Positions 1-64,000 of a stretch of 64,000 nt of DNA are shown one piece after another; the stretch's first letter is position 1, and each line of letters begins with the position of its first letter. The translations under genes and the position numbers were made by a program. The stretch lies in the NCBI RefSeq assembly GCF_965641715.1, contig NZ_OZ282453.1; one strand, given 5' to 3'. The notes under the pieces are model-generated. The model worked only from the letters and a program-made list of their open reading frames with translations. It did no database searches and was not told the DNA's origin. The stretch comes from Escherichia coli (lineage in GTDB: Bacteria; Pseudomonadota; Gammaproteobacteria; Enterobacterales; Enterobacteriaceae).

Positions 1-135
1 ACCGCGACCCTGAAAGTGGGGAAACTGTATATCGATTACGACTACACCCCCGTCCCGCCGCTGGAAAATCTGACCCTGCGCCAGCGCATCACCGATACCT
101 ATCTGGCGAACCTGTCAGACTCGGTCAACAGCTAA
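1..135 (+). CDS. P2-like phage tail sheath protein (gpFI-like), 3' end only, truncated by window edge
   Basis: Open frame from window start to TAA at about 133-135, directly upstream of the tail tube gene; assignment by P2 gene order (FI-FII), not by a recognisable motif. Confidence 0.45.
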
Positions 136-147
136 GGAGCTCTGAGC

Positions 148-666
148 ATGGCGTTACCCCGCAAACTGAAATACCTGAACATGTTCAACGATGGCCTCAG
201 CTATATGGGCGTTGTTGAATCCGTCACCCTGCCAAAACTGACCCGCAAGCTGGAGAAATATCGCGGCGGCGGAATGCCGGGGGCGGTGTCGGTTGACCTC
301 GGCCTCGATGATGATGCGCTGTCGCTTGAGTGGACGCTCGGTGGTCTGCCTGACATTGAATTGTGGGTGCAGTACGCCTCGCCGGGTGCTGACAGTGTGC
401 CGCTGCGCTTTACCAGCTCTTATCAGCGTGACGACACCGGCGCGATTTCTGCCGTCGAGGTAGTGATGCGTGGCCGTCATAAAGAATACGACGGCGGTGA
501 AAACAAGCAGGGCGAAAGCGGCACGACCAAAATGGCGACCGAGTGCGCCTATTACCAGCTCACGATTGATGGCAAAGAAGTCATCGAAATTGACGTGATC
601 AACATGGTGCTGAAAGTCGACGGTGTCGACCGTATGGCAGAGCATCGCAAGGCGATTGGCCTGTAA
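148..666 (+). CDS. P2-like phage tail tube protein (gpFII family)
   Basis: 172-aa ORF in track, same length as P2 FII; sits in conserved order FII-E-T-U-D-ogr. Confidence 0.85.
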   Translation: MALPRKLKYLNMFNDGLSYMGVVESVTLPKLTRKLEKYRGGGMPGAVSVDLGLDDDALSLEWTLGGLPDIELWVQYASPGADSVPLRFTSSYQRDDTGAISAVEVVMRGRHKEYDGGENKQGESGTTKMATECAYYQLTIDGKEVIEIDVINMVLKVDGVDRMAEHRKAIGL

Positions 667-720
667 TCCCTCAACCGGTCAGCGGGGCTGGCCGGTCACT
701 TACCCTGATGAGAAATTCGC

Positions 721-1035
721 ATGAAAAATATCAATGAAACTGCTGTTGCTGGCACTGAAAACGTCAATCCGAATGTCGTTATTTTTGACACGCCGCTGAT
801 GCGTGGTGAGCAGAAAATTGAACAGGTCACCTTAACCAAACCAAACGCGGGAACCCTGCGCGGGGTGTCGCTGGCCTCGCTGGCAAGTTCCGACGTTGAC
901 GCGCTGATTAAGGTGCTGCCGCGCATGACGTATCCGGCACTGACCGAGCACGAGCTCGCGCGTCTGGATGCGTCAGACCTGATTTCGCTGGCCGGTAAGG
1001 TGGTCGGTTTTTTGTCACCGGCTTCGGGTCGCTGA
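721..1035 (+). CDS. P2-like tail assembly chaperone (gpE family), zero-frame product
   Basis: 104-aa ORF between tail tube and tape measure genes; contains slippery T TTT TTG near its 3' end as in P2 E/E+E'. Confidence 0.75.
   Translation: MKNINETAVAGTENVNPNVVIFDTPLMRGEQKIEQVTLTKPNAGTLRGVSLASLASSDVDALIKVLPRMTYPALTEHELARLDASDLISLAGKVVGFLSPASGR
1008..1014 (+). other. Programmed -1 ribosomal frameshift site (T TTT TTG) producing E+E' fusion that would terminate near 1190
   Basis: Heptamer TTTTTTG in the E frame (codons GGT TTT TTG); the -1 frame stays open from the slip site to a TAA overlapping the tape measure start (about 1188-1190). Conserved chaperone frameshift of long-tailed phages (lambda G/GT, P2 E/E+E'). 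Confidence 0.65.
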
Positions 1036-1179
1036 CCTTCCCGGAAAAACTGTCGGTCGATGACCTGATGGCGGATATCGCGGTGATCTTCCACTGGCCG
1101 CCATCAGAGCTAAATTCCCTGAGCGTGACCGAGCTCCTGACATGGCGCGATAAGGCGCTGCAACGAAGCGGAAGCCATC

Positions 1180-3621
1180 ATGAGCAATAACGTCAGAATC
1201 GAGGTGCTGCTGAACGCAGTCGACCGGGCAAGCCGCCCGCTTAAAGCGATTCAGAACGCCAGCAAATCCCTGTCCGGTGATATCCGCAATTCACAAAAAA
1301 GCCTGCGCGAACTTAATGCGCAGGCGTCCCGTATTGACGGATTCCGCAAAGCCAGCGCACAGCTTGCCGTGACCGGTCACTCGCTTGAGAAAGCGAAACA
1401 GGAAGCGCAAGCCCTTGTCACGCAATTTAAAAACACCGAGCGCCCGACACGTGCGCAGGCGCAGGTGCTTGAATCGGCAAAGCGTGCCGCCGACGGGCTG
1501 CAGACGAAATACAACAGCCTAACTGAGTCTGTGAAACGCCAGCAACGCGAGCTCGGTGCTGTCGGGATTAATACCCGTAATCTGGCAAATGATGAGCGGG
1601 GGCTCAAATCGCGCATCAGTGAGACGACTGCGCAGCTCAATCGGCAGCGTGAGGCACTGGCGAAAGTCAGCGCACAGCAGGCAAAGTTAAGCCGGGTGAA
1701 AGCGCGGTATCAGGCCGGTAAATCGCTTGCCGGTAGCATGGCGGCGGCTGGCGCGGCCGGTGTCGGTATTGCGACAACAGGAACCATGGCCGGGGTCAAG
1801 CTGCTGACGCCGGGTTATGAATTTGCACAGAAAAACTCAAAGCTGCAGGCAGTGCTCGGTGTCGACAAACAGTCGCCTGAAATGCAGGCGCTGCGTAAAC
1901 AAGCGCGCCAGCTCGGTGACAATACCGCTGCCTCTGCCGATGATGCGGCGGGTGCGCAGATTATCATCGCGAAAAGCGGCGGTGATGCGGCGGCCATTCA
2001 GGCGGCGACGCCGGTCACACTGAATATGGCGCTGTCCAACAAGCGCACGATGGAAGAGAACGCCGCGCTGCTGACGGGCATGAAATCCGCTTTCCAGCTC
2101 TCTAACGATAAAGTCGCGCATATTGGCGATGTTCTCTCGATGACGATGAACAAAACCGCCGCTGACTTTGACGGGATGAGCGATGCGCTGACCTATACCG
2201 CGCCGGTGGCGAAAAATGCCGGGGTGAGTATCGAAGAAACCGCCGCGATGGTGGGGGCGCTGCACGATTCTAAAATCACCGGCTCGATGGCGGGTACAGG
2301 GAGCCGTGCCGTTCTGAGTCGCCTGCAGGCGCCGACCGGTAAAGCCTACGACGCCATCAAAGAGCTCGGCATTAAAACGAGCGACAGCAAAGGCAATACG
2401 CGCCCGATATTTTCCATCCTGAAGGAAATGCAGCGCAGTTTTGAGAAAAACAATCTCGGAACGGGTCAGAAAGCCGAATACATGAAAACCATTTTCGGTG
2501 AAGAAGCCAGCTCAGCGGCCGCTGTGCTGATGGCCGCCGCATCAAACGGCAAGCTCGACCAGCTCACCGCCGCGTTTAAAGCCTCGGACGGCAAGACTGA
2601 GGAGCTGGTTAAGGTTATGCAGGATAACCTCGGCGGCGACTTTAAAGAGTTTCAGTCAGCCTATGAGGCGGTTGGCACTGACCTGTTTGATCAGCAGGAG
2701 GGCTCACTGCGTAAGCTGACGCAGACGGCCACGCAATATGTGCTCAGGCTCGACGGCTGGATCCAGAAAAATAAAGGGCTGGCGACCACCATCGGCGTGG
2801 TGGTCGGGGGTGCGCTGGCGCTGATTGGTGTAATGGGCGGGATTGGCCTTGTCGCATGGCCGGTGGTAATGGGGATTAATGCCATCATTGCGGCGGCTGG
2901 CGTGCTCGGTGTGGTTTTCAGTACGGTTGGAGGCGCGATTGTCACGGCCATTGGCGCAATCAGCCTGCCGGTGCTGGCGGTTGCCGGTGCCGTGGTGGCC
3001 GGTGCGTTGCTGATCCGTAAATACTGGGAGCCGCTCGGTGCATTTTTCTCGGGCGTGGTGGAGGGACTGAAAGCCGCCTTTGCACCGGTGGGGGACATGT
3101 TTACCCCGCTCGCGCCGGTGTTTGACGCCATCGCTGAAAAGCTGGGTGTCGTCTGCCAGTGGTTTAAAGACCTGCTTGCGCCGGTGAAAGCCACGCAGGA
3201 CACGCTCTCCAGTTGCAAAAATGTCGGCGTTACTTTTGGTCAGGCGCTGGCTGATGCGCTGATGATGCCGCTCAAGATGTTTAACAGCCTGAGCGGCAAG
3301 GTCGGCTGGCTGCTGGAGAAACTCGGCGTTATCAAAAAAGAATCCAGCGACCTCGACCAGACCGCAGCGAAAGCGAATAAGGCGTCCCCGAATGGCGGGT
3401 ATATCCCTGCGACCGCAGGTTATGGCGGGTATCAGGCGTATCAGCCGGTCACAGCGCCCGCAGGCCTGTCTTATATCGACCAGAGCAAAAGCGAATACAA
3501 CATCAACCTGCAGGGCGGAGTCGCACCGGGCAGTGACCTTGACCGCCAGCTCCGTGACGCGGTCGACAAACTTGACCGCGAGAAACGTGCGCGTCAGCGA
3601 TCCAGTATGAGACTCGACTGA
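1180..3621 (+). CDS. P2-like phage tail tape measure protein (gpT family)
   Basis: 813-aa ORF; Ala/Gln/Lys-rich N-terminal half and long Gly/Ala/Val-rich hydrophobic segment; position between E/E' and U. Confidence 0.9.
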   Translation: MSNNVRIEVLLNAVDRASRPLKAIQNASKSLSGDIRNSQKSLRELNAQASRIDGFRKASAQLAVTGHSLEKAKQEAQALVTQFKNTERPTRAQAQVLESAKRAADGLQTKYNSLTESVKRQQRELGAVGINTRNLANDERGLKSRISETTAQLNRQREALAKVSAQQAKLSRVKARYQAGKSLAGSMAAAGAAGVGIATTGTMAGVKLLTPGYEFAQKNSKLQAVLGVDKQSPEMQALRKQARQLGDNTAASADDAAGAQIIIAKSGGDAAAIQAATPVTLNMALSNKRTMEENAALLTGMKSAFQLSNDKVAHIGDVLSMTMNKTAADFDGMSDALTYTAPVAKNAGVSIEETAAMVGALHDSKITGSMAGTGSRAVLSRLQAPTGKAYDAIKELGIKTSDSKGNTRPIFSILKEMQRSFEKNNLGTGQKAEYMKTIFGEEASSAAAVLMAAASNGKLDQLTAAFKASDGKTEELVKVMQDNLGGDFKEFQSAYEAVGTDLFDQQEGSLRKLTQTATQYVLRLDGWIQKNKGLATTIGVVVGGALALIGVMGGIGLVAWPVVMGINAIIAAAGVLGVVFSTVGGAIVTAIGAISLPVLAVAGAVVAGALLIRKYWEPLGAFFSGVVEGLKAAFAPVGDMFTPLAPVFDAIAEKLGVVCQWFKDLLAPVKATQDTLSSCKNVGVTFGQALADALMMPLKMFNSLSGKVGWLLEKLGVIKKESSDLDQTAAKANKASPNGGYIPATAGYGGYQAYQPVTAPAGLSYIDQSKSEYNINLQGGVAPGSDLDRQLRDAVDKLDREKRARQRSSMRLD

Positions 3622-3634
3622 GGGAGGGATAAAA

Positions 3635-4099
3635 ATGTTAATGGGGCTGGGCTTTTTCGTGTTTGAACGGCGCACCCTGCCGCATCAGTCAATGCAGTAT
3701 TCGAAGGACTACCGCTGGGTGTCAAATGACCGTATCGGAAAACCCCCGGCTTATCAGTATCTCGGGGAGGGGGAAACCTCGCGTACCCTGTCGGGCACGC
3801 TTTACCCTGAAATCACCGGCGGGCGTCTGTCACTGATGGCCATCGAACTGATGGCCGATGAGGGGCGCGCATGGCCGCTGATTGACGGAACCGGCATGAT
3901 CCACGGGATGTATGTCATCGATAAAGTGACTCACAACCACACCGAGTTATTCAGCGACGGCGCGGCTAAAAAAATCGAGTTTAGCCTGTCGCTTAAGCGG
4001 GTGGATGAATCCCTCGCGGCCATCTACGGCGACCTGAAAACGCAGGCTGATAATCTGGTCACGTCTGCCGGTAACTGGCTCGGGGGGCTGGCGGGATGA
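3635..4099 (+). CDS. P2-like phage tail protein (gpU family)
   Basis: 154-aa ORF immediately after tape measure and overlapping gpD start by 4 nt; P2 synteny. Confidence 0.8.
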   Translation: MLMGLGFFVFERRTLPHQSMQYSKDYRWVSNDRIGKPPAYQYLGEGETSRTLSGTLYPEITGGRLSLMAIELMADEGRAWPLIDGTGMIHGMYVIDKVTHNHTELFSDGAAKKIEFSLSLKRVDESLAAIYGDLKTQADNLVTSAGNWLGGLAG

Positions 4100-5259
4100 T
4101 AACGGGAATGACTATTCAGGCCGGGGCGCGCATTGCTCCTGATTTTATGCTCACGCTCGGTGGCGCAGATATCACACAGAATTTCAGCGACCGGCTTATC
4201 GGGCTGACCATGACCGACAATCGCGGATTCGAGGCTGACCAGCTTGATATCGAGCTCGATGATACCGATGGACTGGTCGAGCTGCCGCCGCGCGGGGCAT
4301 CGCTGACCCTGTGGCTGGGCTGGCAGGGCTCGGCGCTGATTAACAAAGGGAGTTTTACGGTTGACGAAATCGAGCACCGGGGCGCGCCTGACAGGCTGAC
4401 TATCCGGGGACGCAGTGCGGATTTTCGCGGGACGCTGAACTCGCGCCGCGAGCAGTCATGGCACGACACCACGCTCGGGGTGATTGTCGAGACTATCGCG
4501 CAGCGTAACAAACTGACGGCCAGCGTGGCTGATACCCTGAAAGCTGTTGCTGTGCCGCATATTGACCAGTCTCAGGAATCCGACGCGGCGTTTTTGTCCC
4601 GACTGGCGGATCGCAACGGGGCAACGGTTTCGGTCAAGGCCGGGAAATTGTTATTCCTGAAAGCCGGTAGCGCGATGACGGCCAGTGGTAAGGCCATCCC
4701 GCAAATGACCGTCGAACGCGGCGACGGCGACCGGCATCAGTTTGCCATAGCCGACCGCGAGGCATACTCCGGCGTAACCGCTAAATGGCTGCACACCAGA
4801 GACCCGAAACCGCAAAAGCAAAAGGTGAAGCTCAAGCGCAAACCCAAAGAGCAGCACCTGCGTGCGCTGCAGCACCCGAAGGTTGCTAAAACATCGGCAA
4901 AGGCTAAAAAGAAGAAGGTGCAGGAAGCGCGGGAAGGTGAGTATATGGCCGGTGAGTCCGACAATGTTCTGGAACTCACGACCATCTACGCGACAAAGGC
5001 GCAGGCCATGCGCGCAGCTCAGGCAAAGTGGGACAGGATACAGCGTGGGGTGGCGGAGTTTTCGATCACGCTCGCCACTGGCCGCGCTGATTTATTTCCT
5101 GAAACGCCGGTGGCAGTGAAAGGCTTTAAGCGCGTTATAGACGAGCAGGCGTGGATAATCAGTCGTGTGGTACACAGCCTCAACGGGAGCGGCTTCACGA
5201 CGGGCTTAGAGCTTGAGGTTAAGGTTTCTGATGTGGAGTATGAAAGCGAGGAAGTTTAA
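4096..5259 (+). CDS. P2-like phage tail protein D (gpD family)
   Basis: 387-aa ORF (same length as P2 gpD) with Lys-rich basic stretch; followed by ogr. K-12 retains only a remnant of this gene (yegZ) at this position. Confidence 0.85.
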   Translation: MITGMTIQAGARIAPDFMLTLGGADITQNFSDRLIGLTMTDNRGFEADQLDIELDDTDGLVELPPRGASLTLWLGWQGSALINKGSFTVDEIEHRGAPDRLTIRGRSADFRGTLNSRREQSWHDTTLGVIVETIAQRNKLTASVADTLKAVAVPHIDQSQESDAAFLSRLADRNGATVSVKAGKLLFLKAGSAMTASGKAIPQMTVERGDGDRHQFAIADREAYSGVTAKWLHTRDPKPQKQKVKLKRKPKEQHLRALQHPKVAKTSAKAKKKKVQEAREGEYMAGESDNVLELTTIYATKAQAMRAAQAKWDRIQRGVAEFSITLATGRADLFPETPVAVKGFKRVIDEQAWIISRVVHSLNGSGFTTGLELEVKVSDVEYESEEV

Positions 5260-5339
5260 CGGTGTGTGTTGTTTATGTGTTTGTTTTATAAATAAAAATT
5301 AGTAAAATTAACACATTGAATACGCCGGAGACCCTCATC

Positions 5340-5561
5340 ATGTTTCATTGTCCGAAATGCCATCATGCCGCCCACGCCCGCACGAGTCGCTATTTTACTG
5401 ATACCACAAAAGAGCGGTATCACCAGTGCACAAACATTAACTGCAGCTGCACGTTTGTGACCACTGAAACAGTCGAGCGTTTTATCGTGTCGCCGGGGGA
5501 AGTAGTACCCGCGCCGCCGCATCCGACATCATCAGGTCAGCAACAAATTCACTGGATGTGA
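5340..5561 (+). CDS. ogr: Ogr/Delta-family zinc-finger late-gene transcription activator
   Basis: 72-aa product MFHCPKCHHAAHARTSRYF...CTNINCSCTF with Cys4 zinc-finger spacing typical of P2 Ogr; ATG at 5340 inside track ORF 5316-5561. Confidence 0.9.
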   Translation: MFHCPKCHHAAHARTSRYFTDTTKERYHQCTNINCSCTFVTTETVERFIVSPGEVVPAPPHPTSSGQQQIHWM

Positions 5562-5571
5562 CAAACGAGAA

Positions 5572-5596
5572 AGCCCCGCGAATGCGGGGCTTTTTG
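5572..5596 (+). terminator. Rho-independent terminator downstream of ogr
   Basis: GC stem AGCCCCGC / GCGGGGCT with 4-nt loop followed by TTTTT, 10 nt after the ogr stop. Confidence 0.65.
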
Positions 5597-5866
5597 CAAC
5601 TTTTAGATCAGTTATGTTAAGTACATTTCCGTCGGCAAAGTGCCAGGAGCGGGTTCTAGAGAGTGACTAACGTTAGTTATATGTGTAAAATTCCTTAAAA
5701 ATAAGAAGGATATATATCCATGACAGCAATTGCATATTGGATTAACTGAGAATCAATTGAGAAATTTTTGGGGGGCAAAAAATAAACTAGCTAATTAAAT
5801 TTTTATAAATAACGAATATAAGACTGCAAGCCATTTAACAAAAGTTTATAAATAAAGGAGTCAGTT

Positions 5867-6718
5867 TTGAACAATATCCCCATATCTACTCAATGGACTT
5901 TAGACGCTACGGGTGAAGTTGGACGCTCATCAGTAAATTCTGTTTATATGATTATATGTCCTGCGACAGGCTCGAAAGGATCTGGTTTTTTAATAGATAA
6001 TGGGTTAATAGTAACGAACGAGCATGTTATCACTGGATGCTCTACAAATCAGATTTTCGCAATTTCAGCTTATGGACAGAAGATTCCAATTTCTCAAAAA
6101 TGGATAGATTCTGATCGCGATTTAGCTGTGCTGAGACCTGCCATTACCCAGACTGGTGGGCTAAGTATTGTTAAGGATAATGATCTTAAAGTTGGTGAAT
6201 CAGTAACAACTTGGGGATACCCATTAGGATACAACGGTCCTGCACCGTTACTATCCGTTGGTTATCTAGCAGGATTTAACTCATACCAAACCGCCAAGGG
6301 ACAAAAAAAACATCTAGTGGTAAATGGGGCATTTAACTCAGGAAATTCTGGTGGAGCTCTTTTAAAAGCTTCAGATAATAAAGTAATAGGTATTGTAGTG
6401 AGTAAGCATGCTCCTATCAGTCAATACCATCAATCAGCTATTGAAGCTTTGTCTGAAAATATGAGTGGCGTCACCTATACCGCTACTAATGACGCTGGAG
6501 AAACTAAAAGTTTTGTAGAATCTCAAATTGTAGCAGAATTATTGATTCATATGAGAAGTCTAACTCAAGTTATGATTGGAGAAGCAATTGCAGCAGAGGA
6601 ATTACTTTCGATGCTTAGCGAAATTGACTTGAGTCCACCACAATCTATGTCAAGAAATGCCTTATGTCATTGCGGGAGTGGAAAACGCTTCAAAGAATGT
6701 CATGGAAAGATATCCTAG
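5867..6718 (+). CDS. Prophage cargo protein: cytoplasmic HtrA/DegP-like (S1C, trypsin-fold) serine protease domain fused to C-terminal SEC-C zinc-binding motif
   Basis: 283-aa ORF with TTG start 6 nt after an AAGGAG Shine-Dalgarno. Motifs: GSGFLI...TNEHV (His about aa 53), DLAVL (Asp about aa 85), GNSGGAL (Ser about aa 161), as in the DegP/HtrA catalytic triad. C-terminus CHCGSGKRFKECHG matches the SecA SEC-C zinc motif. No signal peptide, no PDZ domain. Visibly AT-rich relative to flanks. Confidence 0.75.
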   Translation: MNNIPISTQWTLDATGEVGRSSVNSVYMIICPATGSKGSGFLIDNGLIVTNEHVITGCSTNQIFAISAYGQKIPISQKWIDSDRDLAVLRPAITQTGGLSIVKDNDLKVGESVTTWGYPLGYNGPAPLLSVGYLAGFNSYQTAKGQKKHLVVNGAFNSGNSGGALLKASDNKVIGIVVSKHAPISQYHQSAIEALSENMSGVTYTATNDAGETKSFVESQIVAELLIHMRSLTQVMIGEAIAAEELLSMLSEIDLSPPQSMSRNALCHCGSGKRFKECHGKIS

Positions 6719-6866
6719 TAAGTACTTATATCAGTCTGATAATGGCTCTTCAAATACAAAAGACTTCACTTACTCTGCCGTCATCTCTGCTCCTCGCTTA
6801 TTGCAGACGGTCAAAAGCTTACAAGCTGTTGACTAGATGTGTTCTTACATTGTCAGTTAAAACAAA

Positions 6867-6891
6867 AGCCCCGCAAATGCGGGGCTTTTTG
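6867..6891 (+). terminator. Rho-independent terminator downstream of the cargo gene (near-identical copy of the ogr terminator)
   Basis: Stem AGCCCCGC / GCGGGGCT, loop AAAT, then TTTTT; differs from the 5572-5596 hairpin essentially by one loop base. Confidence 0.65.
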
Positions 6892-6956
6892 TATCGATGT
6901 GGTCAATGTGTGGACATTGATAGAAATAAATCCATTTATTTCAGTAAGTTACATGC

Positions 6957-6983
6957 AAAAAATAAGCCCGTGTAAGGGAGATT
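6957..6983. other. P2-type attachment site core (prophage attR), identical to the 3' end of cyaR
   Basis: Sequence AAAAAATAAGCCCGTGTAAGGGAGATT matches the 27-nt P2 att core as I recall it; lies at the junction between prophage cargo and the host cyaR gene. Confidence 0.55.
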
Positions 6984-7043
6984 ACACAGGCTAAGGAGGT
7001 GGTTCCTGGTACAGCTAGCATTTTATGGGTTATGTTTTTCAGC
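6957..7043 (-). ncRNA. cyaR: CyaR (RyeE) Hfq-dependent sRNA
   Basis: Minus-strand sequence GCUGAAAAACAUAACCCAUAAAAUGCUAGCUGUACCAGGAACCACCUCCUUAGCCUGUGUAAUCUCCCUUACACGGGCUUAUUUUUU matches CyaR from memory, including the CCUCCU anti-SD loop and terminator; a TGTGA CRP half-site lies about 40 nt upstream. Confidence 0.8.
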
Positions 7044-7127
7044 GAAGCGGATGATAACCTTAATAAATGCAGCTGTATGTGATCGGTTTCTAAGAATTTT
7101 CCATCCGGGAAAAATAATCGAAATTAA

Positions 7128-8489
7128 TCACTTACCGTGGGGGTTACGCGTGGTTTCCCCGGAGAAATTACGCATCAGCAGCGCGTAATTTAGCTCAAGA
7201 TCCTGCGGCACCGGGAGCCACACAGTATAACCATCGCCTGGTGCTATCGGCATAGCTTCGCCTTTGGCGTTTTCCATGTGCTCAAGGGTAAAGTTAATGT
7301 TGCCTTGCGGCGTCATCAGCTCAAGGCTGTCGCCAACGGAGAATTTATTTTTCACCGCTACCGCCGCGAGGTCCCCCTTGCGCTCACCGGTAAACTCACC
7401 AACAAACTGCTGGCGGTCAGAAACCGAATAACCGTATTCGTAGTTCTGATAATCGTCGTGAGTATGACGACGCAGGAAACCTTCGGTATAGCCACGATGC
7501 GCCAGACCTTCCAGAGTTTCTAGCAGGCTGGTATCGAACGGTTTGCCCGCAGCGGCATCATCGATAGCTTTGCGGTAAACCTGTGCGGTGCGTGCGCAAT
7601 AGTAGAAAGATTTAGTACGGCCTTCGATTTTCAGCGAATGCACGCCCATTTTGGTCAGGCGTTCTACATGGGCGATGGCGCGCAGATCTTTCGAGTTCAT
7701 GATGTAAGTGCCGTGCTCATCTTCAAACGCGGTCATATACTCGCCCGGACGCTGGGCTTCTTCGATCATAAACACTTTGTCGGTTGGCGCGCCGATACCC
7801 AGCGTCGGCTCAACATTTTGCACCGGAATCGGCTCGTACTTGTGTACGATGTTGCCAACATCATCTTCTTTCCCTTCCTGGACGTTGTACTCCCAGCGGC
7901 AGGCGTTGGTGCAGGTACCCTGGTTCGGATCGCGCTTGTTGATATAGCCAGAGAGCAGGCAGCGACCGGAGTAGGCCATGCACAGTGCGCCGTGAACGAA
8001 GATCTCGATCTCCATATCCGGCACCTGATTGCGGATCTCTTCAATCTCTTCCAGCGACAGCTCGCGAGAGAGGATCACGCGGGTCAGGCCCATTTGCTGC
8101 CAGAATTTCACCGTTGCCCAGTTTACGGCGTTAGCCTGCACCGAGAGGTGGATCGGCATTTCAGGGAAGTGCTCACGCACCAGCATAATCAGCCCTGGAT
8201 CGGACATAATCAGCGCATCCGGCCCCATTTCCACCACCGGTTTCAGGTCACGGATAAAGGTTTTCAGCTTGGCGTTGTGCGGTGCAATGTTGACCACGAC
8301 ATAAAACTTTTTCCCCAGCGCGTGGGCTTCATTGATGCCGAGCTGAAGATTTTCGTGGTTGAATTCGTTGTTGCGCACACGCAGGGAGTAACGCGGCTGG
8401 CCCGCATAAACAGCATCTGCGCCATAAGCGAAAGCGTAACGCATATTTTTCAGCGTTCCCGCCGGGGAAAGGAGTTCCGGTTTAAACAT
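7128..8489 (-). CDS. rlhA: U32-family peptidase-like protein YegQ/RlhA (23S rRNA 5-hydroxycytidine synthase)
   Basis: 453-aa ORF recognised as E. coli YegQ (MFKPELLSPAGTLKNMRYAFAYGADAVYAGQPRYSLR...); conserved position next to cyaR. Confidence 0.9.
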   Translation of the reverse strand: MFKPELLSPAGTLKNMRYAFAYGADAVYAGQPRYSLRVRNNEFNHENLQLGINEAHALGKKFYVVVNIAPHNAKLKTFIRDLKPVVEMGPDALIMSDPGLIMLVREHFPEMPIHLSVQANAVNWATVKFWQQMGLTRVILSRELSLEEIEEIRNQVPDMEIEIFVHGALCMAYSGRCLLSGYINKRDPNQGTCTNACRWEYNVQEGKEDDVGNIVHKYEPIPVQNVEPTLGIGAPTDKVFMIEEAQRPGEYMTAFEDEHGTYIMNSKDLRAIAHVERLTKMGVHSLKIEGRTKSFYYCARTAQVYRKAIDDAAAGKPFDTSLLETLEGLAHRGYTEGFLRRHTHDDYQNYEYGYSVSDRQQFVGEFTGERKGDLAAVAVKNKFSVGDSLELMTPQGNINFTLEHMENAKGEAMPIAPGDGYTVWLPVPQDLELNYALLMRNFSGETTRNPHGK

Positions 8490-21129: not shown

Positions 21130-21270
21130 GCCCCTCCCGAGGAAGGGGCCATAAATAAGGAAAGGGTCATGATGAAGATACTCATCATCGTGGTGCTCTT
21201 AGTGATTAGCTACCCAGCATACTAAGACTACCAGGGCGGGGGAACCCCCGCTCTACCCTCACTCCTGAAA
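21130..21270 (-). ncRNA. Sib-family antisense sRNA (antitoxin), copy 1; boundaries approximate
   Basis: Inferred from the Ibs/Sib architecture: Sib RNAs are about 140 nt and fully complementary to the ibs ORF on the opposite strand; ends not determinable from sequence alone. Confidence 0.4.
21169..21225 (+). CDS. Ibs-family type I toxin peptide, copy 1 (MMKILIIVVLLVISYPAY)
   Basis: 18-codon ORF with ATGATG start and hydrophobic core, hand-translated from the repeat unit; not in ORF track (below size cutoff). Confidence 0.6.
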   Translation: MMKILIIVVLLVISYPAY

Positions 21271-21457
21271 GTATGCCTTCACGTTCAGAATGTCAATCCG
21301 CAGGCTTTGCAGTCTGCGATCCTGCCAGCAAATATTCTTTGCGAGACGTTACGCAATAATCACACTTGAAACTATTTTATCCGCAAGTCAGCGATAGACT
21401 GCATACAGGGCGAAAGGAGGTAAGCCGAAGATTTCAGCGGGACGCTGAAACGGGAAA

Positions 21458-21598
21458 GCCCCTCCCGAGGAAGGGGCCTTAAATAAGGAAAGGGTCATGA
21501 TGAAGTGGATCATCATCGTGGTGCTCTTAGTTATTAGCTTGCCGGCTTACTAAGTCATCAAAGCGGGGGAAACCCCGCTCTACCCTCACTCCTGAAAG
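21458..21598 (-). ncRNA. Sib-family antisense sRNA, copy 2; boundaries approximate
   Basis: As copy 1, by repeat periodicity. Confidence 0.4.
21497..21553 (+). CDS. Ibs-family type I toxin peptide, copy 2 (MMKWIIIVVLLVISLPAY)
   Basis: 18-codon ORF at the equivalent position of repeat unit 2. Confidence 0.6.
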   Translation: MMKWIIIVVLLVISLPAY

Positions 21599-21784
21599 TA
21601 TGCCTTCACGGTCAGATTGTCAATCCGCAGGCTTTGCAGTCTGCGATCCTGCCAGCAAATATTCTTTGCGAGGCGTTACGCAATAATCACACTTGAAACT
21701 ATTTTATCCGCAAGTCAGCGATAGACTGCATACAGGGCGAAAGGAGGTAAGCCGAAGATTTCAGCGGGACGCTGAAACGGGAAA

Positions 21785-21925
21785 GCCCCTCCCGAGGAAG
21801 GGGCCTTAAATAAGGAAAGGGTCATGATGAAGCTACTCATCATCGTGGTGCTCTTAGTCATAAGCTTCCCCGCTTACTAAGACTACCAGGGCGGGGGAAC
21901 CCCCGCTCTACCCTCATTCCTGAAA
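21785..21925 (-). ncRNA. Sib-family antisense sRNA, copy 3; boundaries approximate
   Basis: As copy 1, by repeat periodicity. Confidence 0.4.
21824..21880 (+). CDS. Ibs-family type I toxin peptide, copy 3 (MMKLLIIVVLLVISFPAY)
   Basis: 18-codon ORF at the equivalent position of repeat unit 3. Confidence 0.6.
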   Translation: MMKLLIIVVLLVISFPAY

Positions 21926-22112
21926 GTATGCCTTCACGGTCAGATTGTCAATCTGCAGGCTTTGCAGTCTGCGATCCTGCCAGCAAATATTCTTTGCGAG
22001 ACGTTACGCAATAATCACACTGGAAACTATTTTATCCGCAAGTCAGCGATAGACTGCATGCATGGCGAAAGGAGGTAAGCCGACGATTTCAGCGGGATGC
22101 TGAAACGGGAAA

Positions 22113-22256
22113 GCCCCTCCCGAGGAAGGGGCCTTAAATAAGGAAAGGGTTATGATGAAGCACGTCATCATACTGGTGATACTCTTAGTGATTAGCTTCC
22201 AGGCTTACTAAGAACACCAGGGGGAGGGGGAAACCTCTCCTAACCCTCACTTCTGA
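22113..22256 (-). ncRNA. Sib-family antisense sRNA, copy 4; boundaries approximate
   Basis: As copy 1, by repeat periodicity. Confidence 0.4.
22152..22211 (+). CDS. Ibs-family type I toxin peptide, copy 4 (MMKHVIILVILLVISFQAY)
   Basis: 19-codon ORF in the most diverged, yegL-proximal repeat unit; closest to K-12 IbsA as I recall it. Confidence 0.6.
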   Translation: MMKHVIILVILLVISFQAY

Positions 22257-22430
22257 AATTATGTCACTCCGCCCTTAGTGTCAATCGACGGCTCTCCGTT
22301 CTTGCGAGGCGAATAGCAAAATTTTCTGCGCCGCCGGGCCTAATTCTGAAAGTTTCTTCGTTTGCTCTTATTTCATTATTGCAATCGGTATGATACCGGA
22401 CCTCAATAATTCTCTAAGAAAGGATTTCTT

Positions 22431-37091: not shown

Positions 37092-37540
37092 AGTAAGTAC
37101 AAAACCTATTCGTTGTATGACAAATGTCACAATTCGATCATGGATAAATCGGGGCAAAAATGCAATGTTGCAGCACTATTTATCTCATATTATTTGAGGG
37201 TAATAACCTCACATTATCCCTGAATTAAAAGTGGTAATAATAAAACATTATTTAAGAAATATCGCATGTGGAGACGCAATATTAAATATTGTCAACATAA
37301 AGAAACTCCTAAAAACCATATTGAATGACACTTAATATAATTCTTAAAAATAGCCAATTGCCGAATTGTTACCTTGCCTGCTATTCCGTTAGCTGTAACA
37401 CTTCCTCCTGCATTATTGGAGAGCCAATATTCAATTACCATAATGTCACCTTATATTCGGAAGTTAATTTCCGCAATAACCCTTTCTCATCAACGACTGT
37501 ATGTTGAGAGGGTTTTAAAAATTAAGCTAAATCAGTGTAT

Positions 37541-37571
37541 TGGTAGCTAAAAAGCCAGGGGCGGTAGCGTG
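37541..37571 (+). promoter_or_regulatory. JUMPstart element with ops site (GGCGGTAGCGTG) in the wza leader; RfaH-dependent antitermination signal
   Basis: TGGTAGCTAAAAAGCCAGGGGCGGTAGCGTG about 180 nt upstream of wza; exact match to ops consensus GGCGGTAGnnTG. Confidence 0.75.
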
Positions 37572-37749: not shown

Positions 37750-38889
37750 ATGATGAAATCCAAAATGAAATTGATGCCATTATTGGTGTCAGTAACCTTG
37801 ATAAGCGGTTGCACAGTACTTCCGGGCAGCAATATGTCGACGATGGGTAAAGACGTCATCAAACAGCAGGACGCTGATTTCGATCTCGACAAAATGGTGA
37901 ATGTTTATCCGTTGACCCCGCGCCTGATTGATCAATTACGTCCACGACCCAACGTAGCGCGCCCCAATATGACGCTGGAAAGTGAGATCGCGAATTACCA
38001 GTATCGCGTCGGGCCGGGGGACGTTCTGAATGTCACCGTCTGGGATCACCCGGAACTCACCACGCCAGCCGGTCAGTACCGCAGCTCCAGCGACACCGGC
38101 AACTGGGTACAGCCTGACGGCACTATGTTTTACCCGTATATCGGCAAGGTTCACGTAGTCGGGAAAACGCTCGCTGAAATCCGCAGTGATATTACCGGGC
38201 GCTTAGCGACGTACATCGCTGACCCGCAGGTGGACGTTAATATCGCCGCCTTCCGCTCGCAAAAAGCCTATATCTCCGGCCAGGTGAATAAATCCGGTCA
38301 ACAGGCGATCACCAACGTGCCACTGACCATTCTCGACGCCATCAACGCCGCAGGTGGCCTGACCGACACCGCTGACTGGCGCAACGTGGTGCTAACACAC
38401 AATGGTCGTGAAGAGCGTATTTCTTTGCAGGCGCTGATGCAAAACGGCGACCTCAACCAGAATCGACTGCTTTACCCCGGCGATATTCTCTACGTGCCGC
38501 GTAATGATGATCTGAAAGTATTTGTGATGGGTGAAGTGAAGAAACAGAGCACCCTGAAAATGGACTTTAGCGGCATGACCCTGACTGAAGCCCTGGGCAA
38601 TGCTGAAGGCATCGACATGACCACCTCCAACGCCAGCGGCATCTTTGTCATTCGTCCGCTGAAAGGCGAGGGCGGGCGTAACGGCAAGATTGCCAATATC
38701 TACCAGCTGGATATGTCCGATGCCACGTCGCTGGTGATGGCGACAGAATTCCGCCTGCAACCTTATGACGTGGTGTATGTCACCACCGCCCCGGTTTCCC
38801 GCTGGAACCGTCTGATCAATCAGTTGCTGCCAACTATTAGCGGTGTCCGTTACATGACGGATACAGCCAGCGACATTCATAACTGGTAA
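37750..38889 (+). CDS. wza: Outer-membrane polysaccharide export lipoprotein Wza
   Basis: 379-aa ORF with lipoprotein signal (LISGCTV); first gene of colanic acid cluster. Confidence 0.95.
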
Positions 38890-52020: not shown

Positions 52021-52102
52021 CGAAACCGCGGTGTAAATAACGACAAAAACAAAATTGGCCGTTTCGGTCAGGGCCAACTATTGCCTGAAAAAGGGTAACG
52101 AT

Positions 52103-56439: not shown

Positions 56440-56715
<276 letters not shown>

Positions 56716-56773
56716 AAACGGCAACGAACACAACAAACACAGCCTCACCTGGCATCACATTTATGAGGAAAAA

Positions 56774-58054
56774 ATGAAATTACTTATTCTGGGCAACCAC
56801 ACTTGCGGCAATCGTGGCGACAGCGCCATCTTGCGCGGCTTACTTGATGCCATCAACATCCTCAATCCACACGCAGAAGTGGACGTGATGAGCCGCTATC
56901 CGGTCAGTTCTTCCTGGCTGCTCAACCGCCCGGTAATGGGTGATCCGCTGTTCCTTCAAATGAAACAACACAACAGCGCGGCGGGCGTTGTCGGGCGCGT
57001 TAAAAAAGTCCTCCGTCGCCGCTATCAACACCAGGTACTGCTCTCGCGCGTCACCGACACTGGCAAGCTGCGTAATATCGCCATCGCCCAGGGATTCACC
57101 GACTTCGTGCGCCTGCTGTCAGGTTACGACGCCATTATCCAGGTCGGCGGATCGTTTTTTGTCGATCTCTACGGCGTGCCGCAGTTTGAACATGCGCTTT
57201 GCACGTTTATGGCGAAAAAGCCGCTGTTTATGATTGGTCACAGCGTCGGTCCCTTCCAGGATGAGCAATTTAACCAACTGGCGAACTACGTTTTTGGTCA
57301 CTGCGACGCGCTGATCCTGCGCGAATCGGTCAGCCTTGATTTGATGAAACGCAGCAATATCACTACCGCAAAAGTGGAACATGGCGTCGATACCGCGTGG
57401 CTGGTCGATCACCACACAGAAGACTTCACCGCCAGCTATGCCGTCCAACACTGGCTGGACGTTGCCGCACAACAGAAAACGGTGGCAATTACCCTGCGCG
57501 AACTGGCACCGTTCGACAAACGTCTCGGCACCACTCAACAAGCGTATGAAAAAGCCTTTGCCGGGGTGGTCAATCGCATTCTCGACGAAGGCTATCAGGT
57601 CATTGCGCTCTCCACCTGTACGGGCATCGACAGCTATAACAAAGACGACCGCATGGTGGCGCTCAACCTGCGCCAGCATATCAGCGATCCTGCCCGTTAC
57701 CACGTAGTGATGGATGAACTTAACGATCTGGAAATGGGCAAAATTCTCGGTGCCTGTGAACTCACCGTTGGTACGCGTCTGCACTCCGCTATTATCTCAA
57801 TGAACTTTGCTACTCCGGCGATTGCCATCAACTATGAACATAAATCCGCTGGGATCATGCAGCAGCTGGGGCTGCCAGAGATGGCAATTGATATCCGTCA
57901 TTTATTAGACGGCAGCCTGCAAGCGATGGTTGCGGATACCTTAGGCCAACTTCCGGCGCTGAACGCGCGACTTAACGAAGCTGTCAGTCGCGAACGTCAG
58001 ACGGGAATGCAGATGGTGCAATCTGTGCTTGAACGCATCGGGGAGGTGAAATGA
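56774..58054 (+). CDS. wcaK: Colanic acid pyruvyl transferase WcaK
   Basis: 426-aa ORF; synteny. Confidence 0.9.
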   Translation: MKLLILGNHTCGNRGDSAILRGLLDAINILNPHAEVDVMSRYPVSSSWLLNRPVMGDPLFLQMKQHNSAAGVVGRVKKVLRRRYQHQVLLSRVTDTGKLRNIAIAQGFTDFVRLLSGYDAIIQVGGSFFVDLYGVPQFEHALCTFMAKKPLFMIGHSVGPFQDEQFNQLANYVFGHCDALILRESVSLDLMKRSNITTAKVEHGVDTAWLVDHHTEDFTASYAVQHWLDVAAQQKTVAITLRELAPFDKRLGTTQQAYEKAFAGVVNRILDEGYQVIALSTCTGIDSYNKDDRMVALNLRQHISDPARYHVVMDELNDLEMGKILGACELTVGTRLHSAIISMNFATPAIAINYEHKSAGIMQQLGLPEMAIDIRHLLDGSLQAMVADTLGQLPALNARLNEAVSRERQTGMQMVQSVLERIGEVK

Positions 58055-59271
58055 AGGTCGGCTTCTTTTTACTGAAATTTCCGTTGTCGTCGGAAACCTT
58101 CGTTCTTAACCAAATCACTGCGTTTATTGATATGGGATTTGAGGTGGAGATTATCGCGCTGCAAAAAGGCGACACACAAAACACCCACGCGGCATGGACG
58201 AAATACAACCTTGCTGCCAGAACCCGCTGGTTACAGGACGAACCTACGGGCAAAGTGGCGAAACTGCGCCACCGCGCCAGCCAGACCTTACGCGGCATTC
58301 ATCGTAAAAATACCTGGCAGGCGCTCAACCTCAAACGCTATGGTGCTGAGTCGCGGAACCTGATTTTGTCTGCCATTTGCGGTCAGATCGCAACACCATT
58401 TCATGCCGATGTCTTTATCGCTCATTTTGGCCCTGCGGGGGTAACCGCAGCAAAACTACGCGAACTGGGTGTCATTCGCGGCAAAATTGCCACTATCTTT
58501 CACGGTATTGATATCTCCAGTCGGGAAGTGCTCAACCACTACACTCCCGAATATCAACAACTGTTTCGCCGTGGCGACCTGATGTTACCGATAAGCGATT
58601 TGTGGGCCGGAAGGCTGCAAAAAATGGGCTGCCCGAGGGAAAAAATCGCCGTATCGCGCATGGGCGTGGACATGACGCGCTTTAGCCCGCGTCCGGTGAA
58701 AGCGCCCGCAACGCCGCTGGAAATCATCTCCGTCGCACGCTTAACCGAAAAAAAAGGCCTGCATGTGGCGATCGAAGCCTGCCGTCAGTTGAAAGAGCAG
58801 GGCATGGCATTTCGCTATCGCATCCTCGGCATTGGCCCGTGGGAACGACGCCTGCGTACCCTCATCGAACAATATCAACTGGAAGATGTGGTAGACATGC
58901 CGGGCTTTAAACCGAGCCACGAAGTGAAAGCGATGCTCGACGACGCGGATGTCTTCCTGTTGCCATCGGTAACGGGCGCGGATGGCGATATGGAAGGTAT
59001 TCCGGTGGCGCTAATGGAAGCGATGGCGGTCGGCATTCCGGTGGTTTCTACTCTGCATAGCGGAATACCGGAATTGGTGGAGGCCGATAAATCCGGCTGG
59101 CTGGTGCCTGAGAACGATGCTCGCGCACTGGCACAACGTCTGGCGGCGTTTAGCCAACTGGACACCGACGAACTGGCTCCGGTCGTCAAACGTGCGCGCG
59201 AAAAAGTCGAACACGATTTTAACCAGCAGGTGATCAATCGAGAACTCGCCAGCTTGCTGCAAGCTTTATAG
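58051..59271 (+). CDS. wcaL: Colanic acid glycosyltransferase WcaL (GT4)
   Basis: 406-aa ORF overlapping wcaK stop. Confidence 0.9.
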
Positions 59272-59281
59272 AGGAGAACGC

Positions 59282-60676
59282 ATGCCATTTAAAACACTCT
59301 CCCGACGCACCTTCCTGACGGCAAGCTCGGCGCTTGCCTTCCTCCATACCCCTTTCGCTCGCGCACTTCCCGCCCGACAAAGCGTTAACATTAACGACTA
59401 CAACCCTCACGACTGGATCGCCTCATTTAAACAAGCCTTCAGCGAAGGGCAAACGGTCGTCGTGCCTGCTGGATTCGTTTGTGACAATATCAACACCGGC
59501 ATCTTCATCCCTCCCGGCAAAACGTTACACATCCTTGGAAGCCTGCGCGGCAACGGCAGAGGGCGATTTGTCTTACAGGACGGCAGCCAGGTGACAGGGG
59601 AGGAGGGCGGCAGTATGCATAACATCACCCTGGATGTGCGAGGCTCTGACTGCACCATCAAAGGGCTGGCGATGAGCGGCTTTGGTCCGGTAACGCAGAT
59701 TTATATCGGCGGCAAAAACAAACGGGTCATGCGCAACCTGACCATCGATAATCTCACCGTTAACCACGCTAATTACGCTATTTTGCGCCAGGGATTTCAT
59801 AACCAGATTATCGGTGCCAACATCACCAACTGTAAATTTAGTGATTTACAGGGCGACGCCATTGAATGGAACGTGGCGATTAACGACCGTGATATTTTGA
59901 TATCTGACCATGTCATCGAGCGCATCAACTGTACCAACGGCAAAATCAACTGGGGCATCGGCATAGGTCTTGCGGGAAGCACTTATGATAATAATTACCC
60001 GGAAGACCAGGCAGTGAAAAACTTTGTCGTGGCGAATATCACGGGAACGGATTGTCGGCAGTTGATCCATGTTGAAAATGGTAAACATTTTGTTATTCGT
60101 AATATCAAAGCCCGCAATATCACGCCGGATTTCAGTAAGAAAGCAGGTATTGATAACGCGACGGTCGCTATTTACGGTTGTGACAATTTCGCAATTGATA
60201 ATATTGAAATGATTAATAGCGCCGGGATGTTAATCGGCTATGGGGTAATTAAAGGCAAATATCTCTCGATACCGCAAAATTTCCGAGTGAATAATATTCA
60301 ACTGGATAACACCCATCTTGCTTATAAATTGCGCGGCATCCAAATCTCCGCTGGGAATGCCGTCTCCTTTGTGGCGCTGACTAACATTGAGATGAAGCGT
60401 GCGTCGCTGGAGTTACACAACAAACCGCAACACCTTTTTATGCGTAATATCAAGGTGATGCAGGAATCCTCAGTTGGACCCGCATTGAGCATGAACTTCG
60501 ACATGCGCAAAGACGTTCGCGGCGTCTTTATGGCGAAAAAAGAAACACTGCTGTCTCTTGCAAATGTTCATGCGGTGAATGAAAAAGGGCAAAGCTCCGT
60601 CGATATCGACAGAGTTAATCACCATATTGTTAATGTGGAAAAGATTAACTTTAGATTGCCGGAACGGAGGGAGTAG
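59282..60676 (+). CDS. wcaM: Colanic acid biosynthesis protein WcaM (putative Tat-exported, beta-helix)
   Basis: 464-aa ORF with twin-arginine-like N-terminus ([22 protein letters not shown]). Confidence 0.9.
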
Positions 60677-60850
60677 ATTTGCGACCATTCCTGGAAAAAT
60701 GGAGCCATACTTAGGAACAATGCTACTGCAATCCACAACGAAGCGGCGTAACATCACAAGTAATTCAGTAATCAATTCAGGGTAATTGATGCTGGCGAAA
60801 AAAATCGAACAAGCTATAATTCAGCAACCATTTTACAGGTGGATGAAATA

Positions 60851-61744
60851 ATGACGAATTTAAAAGCAGTTATTCCTGTAGCGGGTCTTGGGATGCATAT
60901 GTTGCCTGCCACTAAGGCGATTCCCAAAGAGATGCTACCGATCGTCGACAAGCCAATGATTCAGTACATTGTTGACGAGATTGTGGCTGCAGGGATCAAA
61001 GAAATCCTCCTGGTAACTCACGCGTCCAAGAACGCGGTCGAAAACCACTTCGACACCTCTTATGAGTTAGAGTCTCTCCTTGAACAGCGCGTGAAGCGTC
61101 AGCTGCTGGCGGAAGTGCAGTCCATCTGTCCACCGGGCGTGACCATTATGAACGTGCGTCAGGGCGAACCTTTAGGTTTAGGCCACTCCATTTTGTGTGC
61201 ACGACCCGCCATTGGTGACAATCCATTTGTCGTGGTGCTGCCAGACGTTGTGATCGACGACGCCAGCGCCGACCCGCTGCGTTACAACCTTGCTGCCATG
61301 ATTGCACGTTTCAATGAAACGGGCCGCAGTCAGGTGCTGGCAAAACGTATGCCGGGTGACCTCTCTGAATACTCGGTCATCCAGACCAAAGAACCGCTGG
61401 ATCGCGAAGGTAAAGTCAGCCGCATCGTCGAATTTATCGAAAAACCGGATCAGCCGCAGACGCTGGACTCAGACATCATGGCCGTTGGTCGCTATGTGCT
61501 TTCTGCCGATATTTGGCCGGAACTGGAACGTACTCAGCCTGGTGCATGGGGGCGTATTCAGCTGACTGATGCCATCGCTGAACTGGCGAAAAAACAGTCC
61601 GTTGATGCCATGCTGATGACAGGTGACAGCTACGACTGCGGTAAAAAAATGGGCTATATGCAAGCGTTCGTGAAGTATGGGCTACGCAACCTCAAAGAAG
61701 GGGCGAAGTTCCGTAAAGGGATTGAGAAGCTGTTAAGCGAATAA
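60851..61744 (+). CDS. galF: UTP-glucose-1-phosphate uridylyltransferase regulatory paralogue GalF
   Basis: 297-aa product [32 protein letters not shown]...; ATG at 60851 inside track ORF 60839-61744. Confidence 0.95.
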
Positions 61745-62009
61745 TGAAAATCTGACCGGATGTAACGGTTGATAAGAAAATTATAACGGCAGTGAAGATT
61801 CGTGGCGAAAGTAATTTGTTGCGAATTTTCCTGCCGTTGTTTTATATAAACAATCAGAATAACAAGGAGTTAGCAATAGGATTTTAGTCAAAGTTTTCCA
61901 GGATTTTCCTTGTTTCCAGAGCGGATTGGTAAGACAATTAGCGTTTGAATTTTTCGGGTTTAGCGCGAGTGGGTAACGCTCGTCACATCGTAGGCATGCA
62001 TGCAGTGCT

Positions 62010-62041
62010 CTGGTAGCTGTAAAGCCAGGGGCGGTAGCGTG
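62010..62041 (+). promoter_or_regulatory. JUMPstart element with ops site (GGCGGTAGCGTG) upstream of the O-antigen (rfb) operon
   Basis: CTGGTAGCTGTAAAGCCAGGGGCGGTAGCGTG about 75 nt upstream of rfbB; near-duplicate of the element upstream of wza. Confidence 0.75.
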
Positions 62042-62115
62042 CATTAATACCTCTATTAATCAAACTAAGAGCCGCTTATTTCACAGCATGCTCTGAAGTA
62101 ATATGGAATAAAAGA

Positions 62116-63201
62116 GTGAAGATACTTGTTACTGGTGGCGCAGGATTTATTGGTTCTGCTGTAGTTCGTCACATTATAAATAATACGCAGGATAGTGTTG
62201 TTAATGTCGATAAATTAACGTACGCCGGAAACCTGGAATCACTTGCTGATGTTTCTGATTCTGAACGCTATATTTTTGAACATGCGGATATTTGCGATGC
62301 TGCTGCAATGGCACGGATTTTTGCTCAGCATCAGCCGGATGCAGTGATGCACTTGGCTGCTGAAAGCCATGTTGACCGTTCAATTACAGGTCCTGCGGCA
62401 TTTATTGAAACCAATATTGTTGGTACTTATGTCCTTTTGGAAGCCGCTCGCAATTACTGGTCTGCTCTTGATAGCGACAAGAAAAATAGCTTCCGTTTTC
62501 ATCATATTTCTACTGACGAAGTATATGGTGATTTGCCTCATCCTGACGAGGTAAATAATACAGAAGAATTACCCTTATTTACTGAGACAACAGCTTACGC
62601 GCCAAGCAGCCCTTATTCCGCATCCAAAGCATCCAGCGATCATTTAGTCCGCGCGTGGAAACGTACCTATGGTTTACCGACCATTGTGACTAATTGCTCT
62701 AACAATTATGGTCCTTATCATTTCCCGGAAAAATTGATTCCATTGGTTATTCTCAATGCTCTGGAAGGTAAAGCATTACCTATTTATGGTAAAGGGGATC
62801 AAATTCGCGACTGGCTGTATGTTGAAGATCATGCGCGTGCGTTATATACCGTCGTAACCGAAGGTAAAGCGGGTGAAACTTATAACATTGGTGGACACAA
62901 CGAAAAGAAAAACATCGATGTAGTGCTCACTATTTGTGATTTGTTAGATGAGATTGTCCCGAAAGAGAAATCTTACCGCGAGCAAATTACTTATGTTGCC
63001 GATCGTCCGGGACACGATCGCCGTTATGCGATTGATGCTGAGAACATTGGTCGCGAATTGGGATGGAAACCACAGGAAACGTTTGAGAGCGGGATTCGTA
63101 AAACGGTGGAATGGTACCTGTCCAATACAAAATGGGTTGATAATGTGAAAAGTGGTGCCTATCAATCGTGGATTGAACAGAACTATGAGGGCCGCCAGTA
63201 A
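62116..63201 (+). CDS. rfbB: dTDP-glucose 4,6-dehydratase (RmlB)
   Basis: 361-aa ORF, GTG start, SDR fold with [12 protein letters not shown]-binding motif. Confidence 0.95.
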
Positions 63202-64000
63202 TGAATATCCTCCTTTTTGGCAAAACAGGGCAGGTAGGTTGGGAACTACAGCGTGCTCTGGCACCTCTGGGTAATTTGATTGCTCTTGATGTTCACTCCA
63301 CTGATTACTGTGGTGATTTTAGTAATCCTGAAGGTGTAGCTGAAACCGTAAGAAGCATTCGGCCTGATATTATTGTCAACGCAGCCGCTCACACCGCAGT
63401 AGACAAAGCAGAATCAGAACCGAAGTTTGCACAATTACTTAACGCGACGAGTGTCGAAGCGATCGCGAAAGCAGCCAATGAAGTCGGCGCTTGGGTTATT
63501 CACTACTCTACTGACTACGTATTTCCGGGGACCGGTGAAATACCATGGCTGGAGACGGATGCAACCGCACCACTAAATGTTTACGGTGAAACCAAGTTAG
63601 CCGGAGAAAAGGCGTTACAGGAATATTGCGCGAAGCATCTTATTTTCCGGACCAGCTGGGTCTATGCAGGAAAAGGAAATAACTTCGCCAAAACGATGCT
63701 ACGTCTGGCAAAAGAGCGTGAAGAATTAGCGGTTATTAACGATCAGTTTGGTGCGCCAACAGGTGCTGAACTGCTGGCTGATTGTACAGCACATGCCATT
63801 CGTGTCGCACTGAATAAACCGGATGTCGCAGGCTTGTACCATTTGGTAGCCAGTGGTACCACAACCTGGTACGATTATGCTGCGCTGGTTTTTGAAGAGG
63901 CGCGCAAAGCAGGCATTCCCCTTGCACTCAACAAGCTCAACGCAGTACCAACAACTGCCTATCCTACACCAGCTCGTCGTCCACATAACTCTCGCCTTAA
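63201..64000 (+). CDS. rfbD: dTDP-4-dehydrorhamnose reductase (RmlD), 5' portion; 3' end beyond window
   Basis: ATG overlapping rfbB stop (ATGA); frame open to window end, translation [30 protein letters not shown]...; not in ORF track because no stop within the window. Confidence 0.9.
   Translation, partial: MNILLFGKTGQVGWELQRALAPLGNLIALDVHSTDYCGDFSNPEGVAETVRSIRPDIIVNAAAHTAVDKAESEPKFAQLLNATSVEAIAKAANEVGAWVIHYSTDYVFPGTGEIPWLETDATAPLNVYGETKLAGEKALQEYCAKHLIFRTSWVYAGKGNNFAKTMLRLAKEREELAVINDQFGAPTGAELLADCTAHAIRVALNKPDVAGLYHLVASGTTTWYDYAALVFEEARKAGIPLALNKLNAVPTTAYPTPARRPHNSRL

Follow-up and report, generated by a model that had tools for sequence, protein, structure and literature searches.

Organization of the galF-rfbB region

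The window, i.e. the whole stretch of 64,000 nt of an Escherichia coli contig (NZ_OZ282453.1, assembly GCF_965641715.1) that was analysed, closes at the beginning of an O-antigen cluster. The genes of this region were identified with NCBIfam equivalog models at their curated cut-offs, which were passed by galF on the 5' side and by the rml genes that open the cluster, as is typical for O-antigen loci (Table 1). galF, which is the conventional left flank of O-antigen clusters and is also annotated in the closely related strain YSP8-1, is followed by rfbB, with which the O-antigen operon begins, and then by rfbD. The latter is cut by the end of the window, as the original prediction had recognized: 266 of its 299 residues are present, and the profile stops accordingly, covering positions 1-266 of 299.

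The interval 61745-62115, previously proposed as the galF-rfbB junction, corresponds exactly to the spacer between the two genes, since it runs from the galF stop codon (61742-61744) to the GTG start codon of rfbB at 62116; both the ORF list and the sequence indicate that these 371 nt are non-coding. The G+C content, about 0.53 in galF, decreases to about 0.41-0.43 in the spacer and in rfbB, and this drop fits the expectation for a target of H-NS and Rho.

The anatomy of the spacer was deduced from two alignments, one of six E. coli O-types and the other of 23 loci from other Enterobacterales with galF upstream. Four parts can be distinguished: the galF hairpin with its T-run, a promoter-like block, the JUMPstart/ops leader and an O-type-specific tail. 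An ORF of 87 aa on the minus strand (61781-62044), which overlaps terminator, promoter and JUMPstart, was rejected as a gene and is unannotated in every fetched genome. Beyond JUMPstart, a low-threshold Rfam scan of the spacer returned spurious microRNA matches only, far below the gathering scores, and one of these is a reflection of the galF hairpin.

Table 1. Features of the galF-rfbB region and related elements of the window
Feature	Coordinates	Strand	Description	Evidence
JUMPstart, colanic acid operon leader (first copy)	37533..37571	+	exact ops at 37560-37571	Rfam RF01707, 57.3 bits
wcaM	59282-60676			NCBIfam equivalog model, above cut-off
galF	60851..61744	+	UTP-glucose-1-phosphate uridylyltransferase GalF, 297 aa	NCBIfam TIGR01105, 689 bits (cut-off 659)
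Long hairpin with U-rich run	61783..61849	+	hairpin 61783-61840, ~25 pairs, then UUGUUUUAUAU	folding and conservation
Candidate sigma-70 promoter	61910..61938	+	-35 TTGTTT 61910-61915, 17-nt spacer, -10 GACAAT 61933-61938	conservation
Small hairpin in the predicted leader, upstream of JUMPstart	61965..61983	+	7 pairs	MFE and centroid folds of 61960-62115
JUMPstart	62003..62041	+	39 nt, CAGTGCTCTGGTAGCTGTAAAGCCAGGGGCGGTAGCGTG	Rfam RF01707 and exact published-type 39-mer
ops (operon polarity suppressor)	62030..62041	+	exact consensus GGCGGTAGCGTG	last 12 nt of JUMPstart
3' tail of the leader, O-type-specific	62042..62115	+	74 nt	similarity to other O-types gone after ops
rfbB/rmlB	62116..63201	+	dTDP-glucose 4,6-dehydratase, 361 aa	NCBIfam NF007490, 794 bits (cut-off 649)
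rfbD/rmlD	63201..64000	+	dTDP-4-dehydrorhamnose reductase	NCBIfam NF007440, 583 bits

The JUMPstart/ops element upstream of rfbB

The JUMPstart element of the spacer matches the Rfam model over its full length (positions 1-38 of 38), with a score of 60 bits (gathering score, 35) and an E-value of 2.6e-11, and no match to the 39-mer is expected by chance, as estimated from 100 shuffles. In the cmscan alignment the stem of the model is formed by 62010-62014, pairing with 62024-62028 through five standard pairs and with no non-canonical marks. A partial ops-like motif, GGTAGC, is found inside the element at 62012-62017, while the exact ops consensus constitutes its 3' end. Thus, the original prediction of a second JUMPstart/ops copy in this spacer was confirmed; its distance from rfbB, given there as about 75 nt, is 74 nt when measured from the end of JUMPstart to the GTG codon. 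Its location at the 5' border where O-antigen clusters conventionally begin proved to be right as well, with galF lying 5' and rfbB 3' according to the NCBIfam assignments.

Every RfaH-controlled operon carries the 12-nt ops in its leader; positions 3-8 of the element are required for RfaH recruitment, pausing occurs at U11, and substitutions at positions 4, 5, 7 and 8 abolish the recruitment (PMC5995543). In the spacer, the core C3-G8 contacted by RfaH corresponds to 62032-62037 and the pause position T11 to 62040. Following the base requirements established in the same study (PMC5995543), positions 3-8, including all four sensitive bases, and the T11/G12 pause signal are intact at 62030-62041. 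The ops strand is the non-template one for rfb transcription, the element, rfbB and rfbD being all on the plus strand, and JUMPstart lies in a non-coding leader just 5' of polysaccharide genes. The GTG codon of rfbB is preceded by a weak Shine-Dalgarno-like GGA at 62105-62107.

The copy upstream of the colanic acid operon

When one mismatch is allowed, the ops consensus is found at two sites only in the window, i.e. the one described above and 37560-37571, which belongs to the JUMPstart copy in the leader of the wza-wcaM operon. This first copy is located 178 nt upstream of the wza ORF (37750-38889), a gene annotated also in YSP8-1. The two 39-mers had been described as nearly identical, and this holds for their 3' 21 nt, ops included, which are indeed the same; for the whole element the wording was slightly generous, as 34 of 39 positions are equal (87%) and five substitutions fall in the 5' half. 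The flanking sequences of the two copies are unrelated. Thus, the two elements share family, strand and 3' portion, but they differ in the distance from the first gene, which is 178 nt for the colanic acid operon and 74 nt for rfbB. The colanic acid operon is silent unless it is induced by the Rcs system.

The bare 8-mer GGCGGTAG occurs seven times in the window versus 1.35 expected; besides 37560 and 62030, it is found at 7358, 18209, 25924, 36973 and 39034, and none of these additional sites extends to the ops 12-mer. Other elements were observed in the region of the colanic acid cluster: an algC RNA motif (78 bits) at 52049-52098, just upstream of cpsG/manB, and two naRNA4 (REP-derived) matches at 56488-56654, between wzxC and wcaK.

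A conserved hairpin downstream of galF

The first part of the spacer folds into a long hairpin. Folding of 61745-61870 (126 nt) gives -41 kcal/mol, corresponding to z = -6.0, and none of 200 shuffles folds as well. The hairpin is kept in the six E. coli O-types, with two compensatory pairs; furthermore, about 18 of the 23 galF loci from other Enterobacterales display a long hairpin with AACGGCAG/CTGCCGTT-like closing arms followed by a T-run, the stem interiors being unrelated in sequence, and a few of the 23 have a different hairpin or no convincing one. With these features, 61783-61849 most likely acts as the intrinsic terminator of galF, which would separate galF transcription from the O-antigen promoter; termination is perhaps partial in E. 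coli, because the U-run UUGUUUUAUAU is interrupted. The hairpin is annotated in no fetched genome record, and a literature search for a galF terminator found nothing specific.

A further role can be envisaged for this structure, namely that of an insulator halting the termination-resistant, RfaH-modified polymerases that come from the upstream colanic acid/galF region. If this were true, it would explain why the O-antigen operon needs its own promoter and its own, second copy of ops. The signals that terminate RfaH-modified complexes are described as unclear (PMC9765446), and this role is considered unlikely.

Candidate promoter and leader

Besides JUMPstart, only one stretch of the spacer is strongly conserved, both among the E. 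coli O-types and across genera. This block, which can be written as CTTGTTTC...GGTAAGACAATTAGCG or as TTTTCCTTGTTTC...GGTAAGACAATTAGCG, contains the hexamers TTGTTT and GACAAT separated by 17 nt and represents a candidate promoter of the O-antigen operon, upstream of ops. Transcription is predicted to start from it at about 61943-61946, and this would generate a leader of about 170-173 nt. A simple promoter and terminator scan of the spacer reported neither the conserved block nor the galF hairpin; the block was missed because it matches 7 of the 12 consensus positions. The weak plus-strand sites overlapping the end of galF, the single minus-strand site and the minus-strand terminator-like sequence at 62087-62071 that the scan reported were taken as chance occurrences.

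As for RNA structure, the leader examined at 61960-62115 (156 nt) folds no better than shuffled sequences (z = -1.3), and for this reason no structure is claimed in it in addition to the JUMPstart stem. The small hairpin at 61965-61983 is weakly supported and finds no conservation in divergent O-types.

Conservation and relationship with other genomes

The spacer was matched in 3715 of 5426 complete genomes. JUMPstart/ops is kept in the six E. coli O-types, including clusters whose first gene is other than rfbB, and many genomes of other O-types are similar to the spacer only up to position 296-305, immediately downstream of ops, in agreement with the six-strain alignment. The conservation extends beyond the species: the exact 18-mer GCCAGGGGCGGTAGCGTG was found in at least 120 stretches from Enterobacterales (Citrobacter, Enterobacter, Pantoea, Erwinia, Serratia and others), often several times per genome and in many cases within a galF-JUMPstart-rfbB arrangement. 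In strain MLI106K1 (NZ_CP116931.1), a glycosyltransferase CDS (1717-2631) is annotated from about 45 nt upstream of JUMPstart, and the element would thus fall inside a coding sequence; the start codon of this gene was probably mis-called.

The nearest relative of the window strain is YSP8-1, which has the same spacer (100% identity) and shows 99.9% identity over galF-rfbD. Mismatches between the two strains amount to about 3.3% over 56518-60433, and then to three only in 60434-64000; this sharp drop of divergence indicates that the window strain and YSP8-1 share a recently exchanged segment, which begins near the 3' terminus of wcaM and includes galF, JUMPstart, rfbB and rfbD. The recombination breakpoint with respect to YSP8-1 is thus placed inside wcaM, at about 60434, and not at JUMPstart.

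In YSP8-1 rfbD is followed by rfbA, rfbC, a flippase (wzx), glycosyltransferases, a hypothetical membrane protein, an acyltransferase, manC, manB and gnd. The hypothetical membrane protein is probably Wzy, and its gene is present in six of the 5426 complete genomes. Judged from this nearest relative, the O-type of the window strain appears to be rare, and the comparison supports, without proving it, that the serotype-specific genes of a rare O-type lie beyond the end of the window.

Other observations concern the relationship of the window with sequenced genomes. Over 39001-64000 (25 kb), the identity to complete E. coli RefSeq genomes does not exceed 97.7%. The first part of the window (1-6950) is the end of a P2-like prophage, with tail tube, tape measure and late control D proteins, which adjoins the CyaR sRNA gene (6960-7045) and yegQ/trhP. 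YSP8-1 lacks this prophage sequence, and about 37 complete genomes contain it at a coverage of at least 80%. At 21154-22284, on the minus strand, four tandem copies of the Sib antitoxin RNA are present (Rfam SIB_RNA, 127-142 bits each), whereas at the same site YSP8-1 has two annotated Ibs toxin genes only; the window strain thus has an expanded Ibs/Sib type I toxin-antitoxin array.

Interpretation of the control region

The 371-nt spacer between galF and rfbB is almost certainly the control region of an O-antigen (rfb/wb*) operon, of the type that is standard in E. coli. JUMPstart/ops controls O-antigen expression, and the operon of the window strain is thus probably under RfaH control, as in other E. 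coli; its RfaH dependence is inferred from the comparison with characterized systems. The rfaH gene is located outside the window. According to the mechanism published for such elements, RNA polymerase transcribing the leader would pause at ops T11 (62040), and the exposed non-template strand would form a tiny hairpin presenting G5 and T6. This hairpin would be bound by the N-terminal domain of RfaH, which would take the place of NusG on the elongation complex. RNA polymerase modified in this way would become resistant to pausing, to Rho-dependent termination and to H-NS/StpA roadblocks, and it would be coupled to the ribosome, so that the whole long, AT-rich O-antigen operon could be transcribed.

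The position of the similarity edge could also be explained by assuming that JUMPstart is mainly a 5' recombination junction, or homology anchor, for the exchange of O-antigen clusters, and that it is conserved for this purpose rather than for regulation. Indeed, in many genomes similarity stops directly 3' of ops, at spacer position 296-305, and the break is equally sharp in the six-strain alignment. However, similarity should stop abruptly at the border of any variable cassette, and the breakpoint with respect to the nearest relative is found at about 60434, at the 3' end of wcaM. Moreover, the element is also found at the start of operons that do not undergo such exchange, such as wza in the window and hly, kps and rfa (PMC9765446). 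An anchoring function would in any case be compatible with a regulatory role and does not represent an alternative to regulation; as the main reason for the conservation of the element, it seems somewhat unlikely.

It can also be proposed that JUMPstart acts mainly through the structure of the leader mRNA, i.e. through the stem-loop at 62010-62028 or larger folds that would stabilize the transcript or bind a factor, and not as a DNA signal. In Rfam the element is classified as a cis-regulatory RNA with a conserved stem of five pairs, all of which are standard in the window, and a conserved stem-loop among JUMPstart elements was noted by Weinberg et al. (PMC2864571). In addition, RfaH requires no more than the 12-nt ops, yet the preceding 27 nt are conserved as well, which an RNA-level role would account for. 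Conversely, RfaH recognizes ops positions 3-8 on the non-template DNA strand (PMC5995543), the whole leader does not fold unusually well (z = -1.3), and the stem is almost invariant in the alignments, so that it provides little evidence of covariation; a mainly RNA-based function is thus regarded as quite improbable.

Finally, a chance or relic match, functionless in the window strain, can be practically dismissed: even if the 8-mer occurs seven times in the window, mostly within genes where no action is expected, and 34 of 42 ops-like sites are non-functional in CFT073 (PMC9765446), the 39-mer is matched exactly over its entire length, and chance predicts no such occurrence; moreover, it is placed in the leader of an operon, with ops on the non-template strand, and this position is conserved across genera.

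The O antigen is a major surface and virulence determinant, and JUMPstart/ops reliably marks where the variable O-antigen cassette begins on its 5' side. The occurrence of this element in front of the O-antigen genes is genuine, but common and well documented: the JUMPstart element is said to have been reported by Hobbs and Reeves in 1994, and nothing new is added here, because descriptions of the arrangement date back to the 1990s and the element has an entry in Rfam. Mildly new, and descriptive only, are the conserved galF hairpin, the footprinted promoter block and the recombination breakpoint in wcaM.

Comparison with known RfaH-dependent systems

In colanic-acid-type E. coli, galF and JUMPstart at the 5' side of the O-antigen cluster represent the normal layout (PMC6128206). 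Functional data are available for the uropathogenic strain CFT073, in which RfaH is detected by ChIP from the ops of the O-antigen leader onward and, when rfaH is missing, the occupancy of RNA polymerase collapses toward the end of the O-antigen operon; this effect depends on H-NS/StpA (PMC9765446). In the same strain, also the wza ops binds RfaH, once the silencing of its promoter by H-NS/StpA is removed (PMC9765446). The distance between ops and the start codon is 74-78 nt in the window, slightly more than the 40-67 nt of wzx, kps and rfa in CFT073 (PMC9765446).

With the RfaH-dependent operons that carry JUMPstart (RF01707) and ops, namely rfb/wb*, waaQ, kps, hly, tra and wza, the element upstream of rfbB shares the full-length match to the model and the exact ops. 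The placing is also the same, i.e. on the non-template strand, within a 5' leader and with a long polysaccharide operon downstream. The succession of galF, JUMPstart and first gene of the cluster is likewise found in O-antigen and capsule loci of E. coli, Citrobacter and Enterobacter.

A similar organization is that of the E. coli O7 O-antigen cluster, in which a 173-nt leader was reportedly mapped by Marolda and Valvano in 1998. As in the window, JUMPstart/ops of the O7 cluster lies in the galF-rmlB spacer; there it belongs to a long untranslated leader preceded by a promoter, to which the candidate promoter at 61910-61938 would correspond. The window strain, however, belongs to another O-type. 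The length reported for the O7 leader agrees with the transcription start predicted here from the conserved -10 hexamer, at about 61943.
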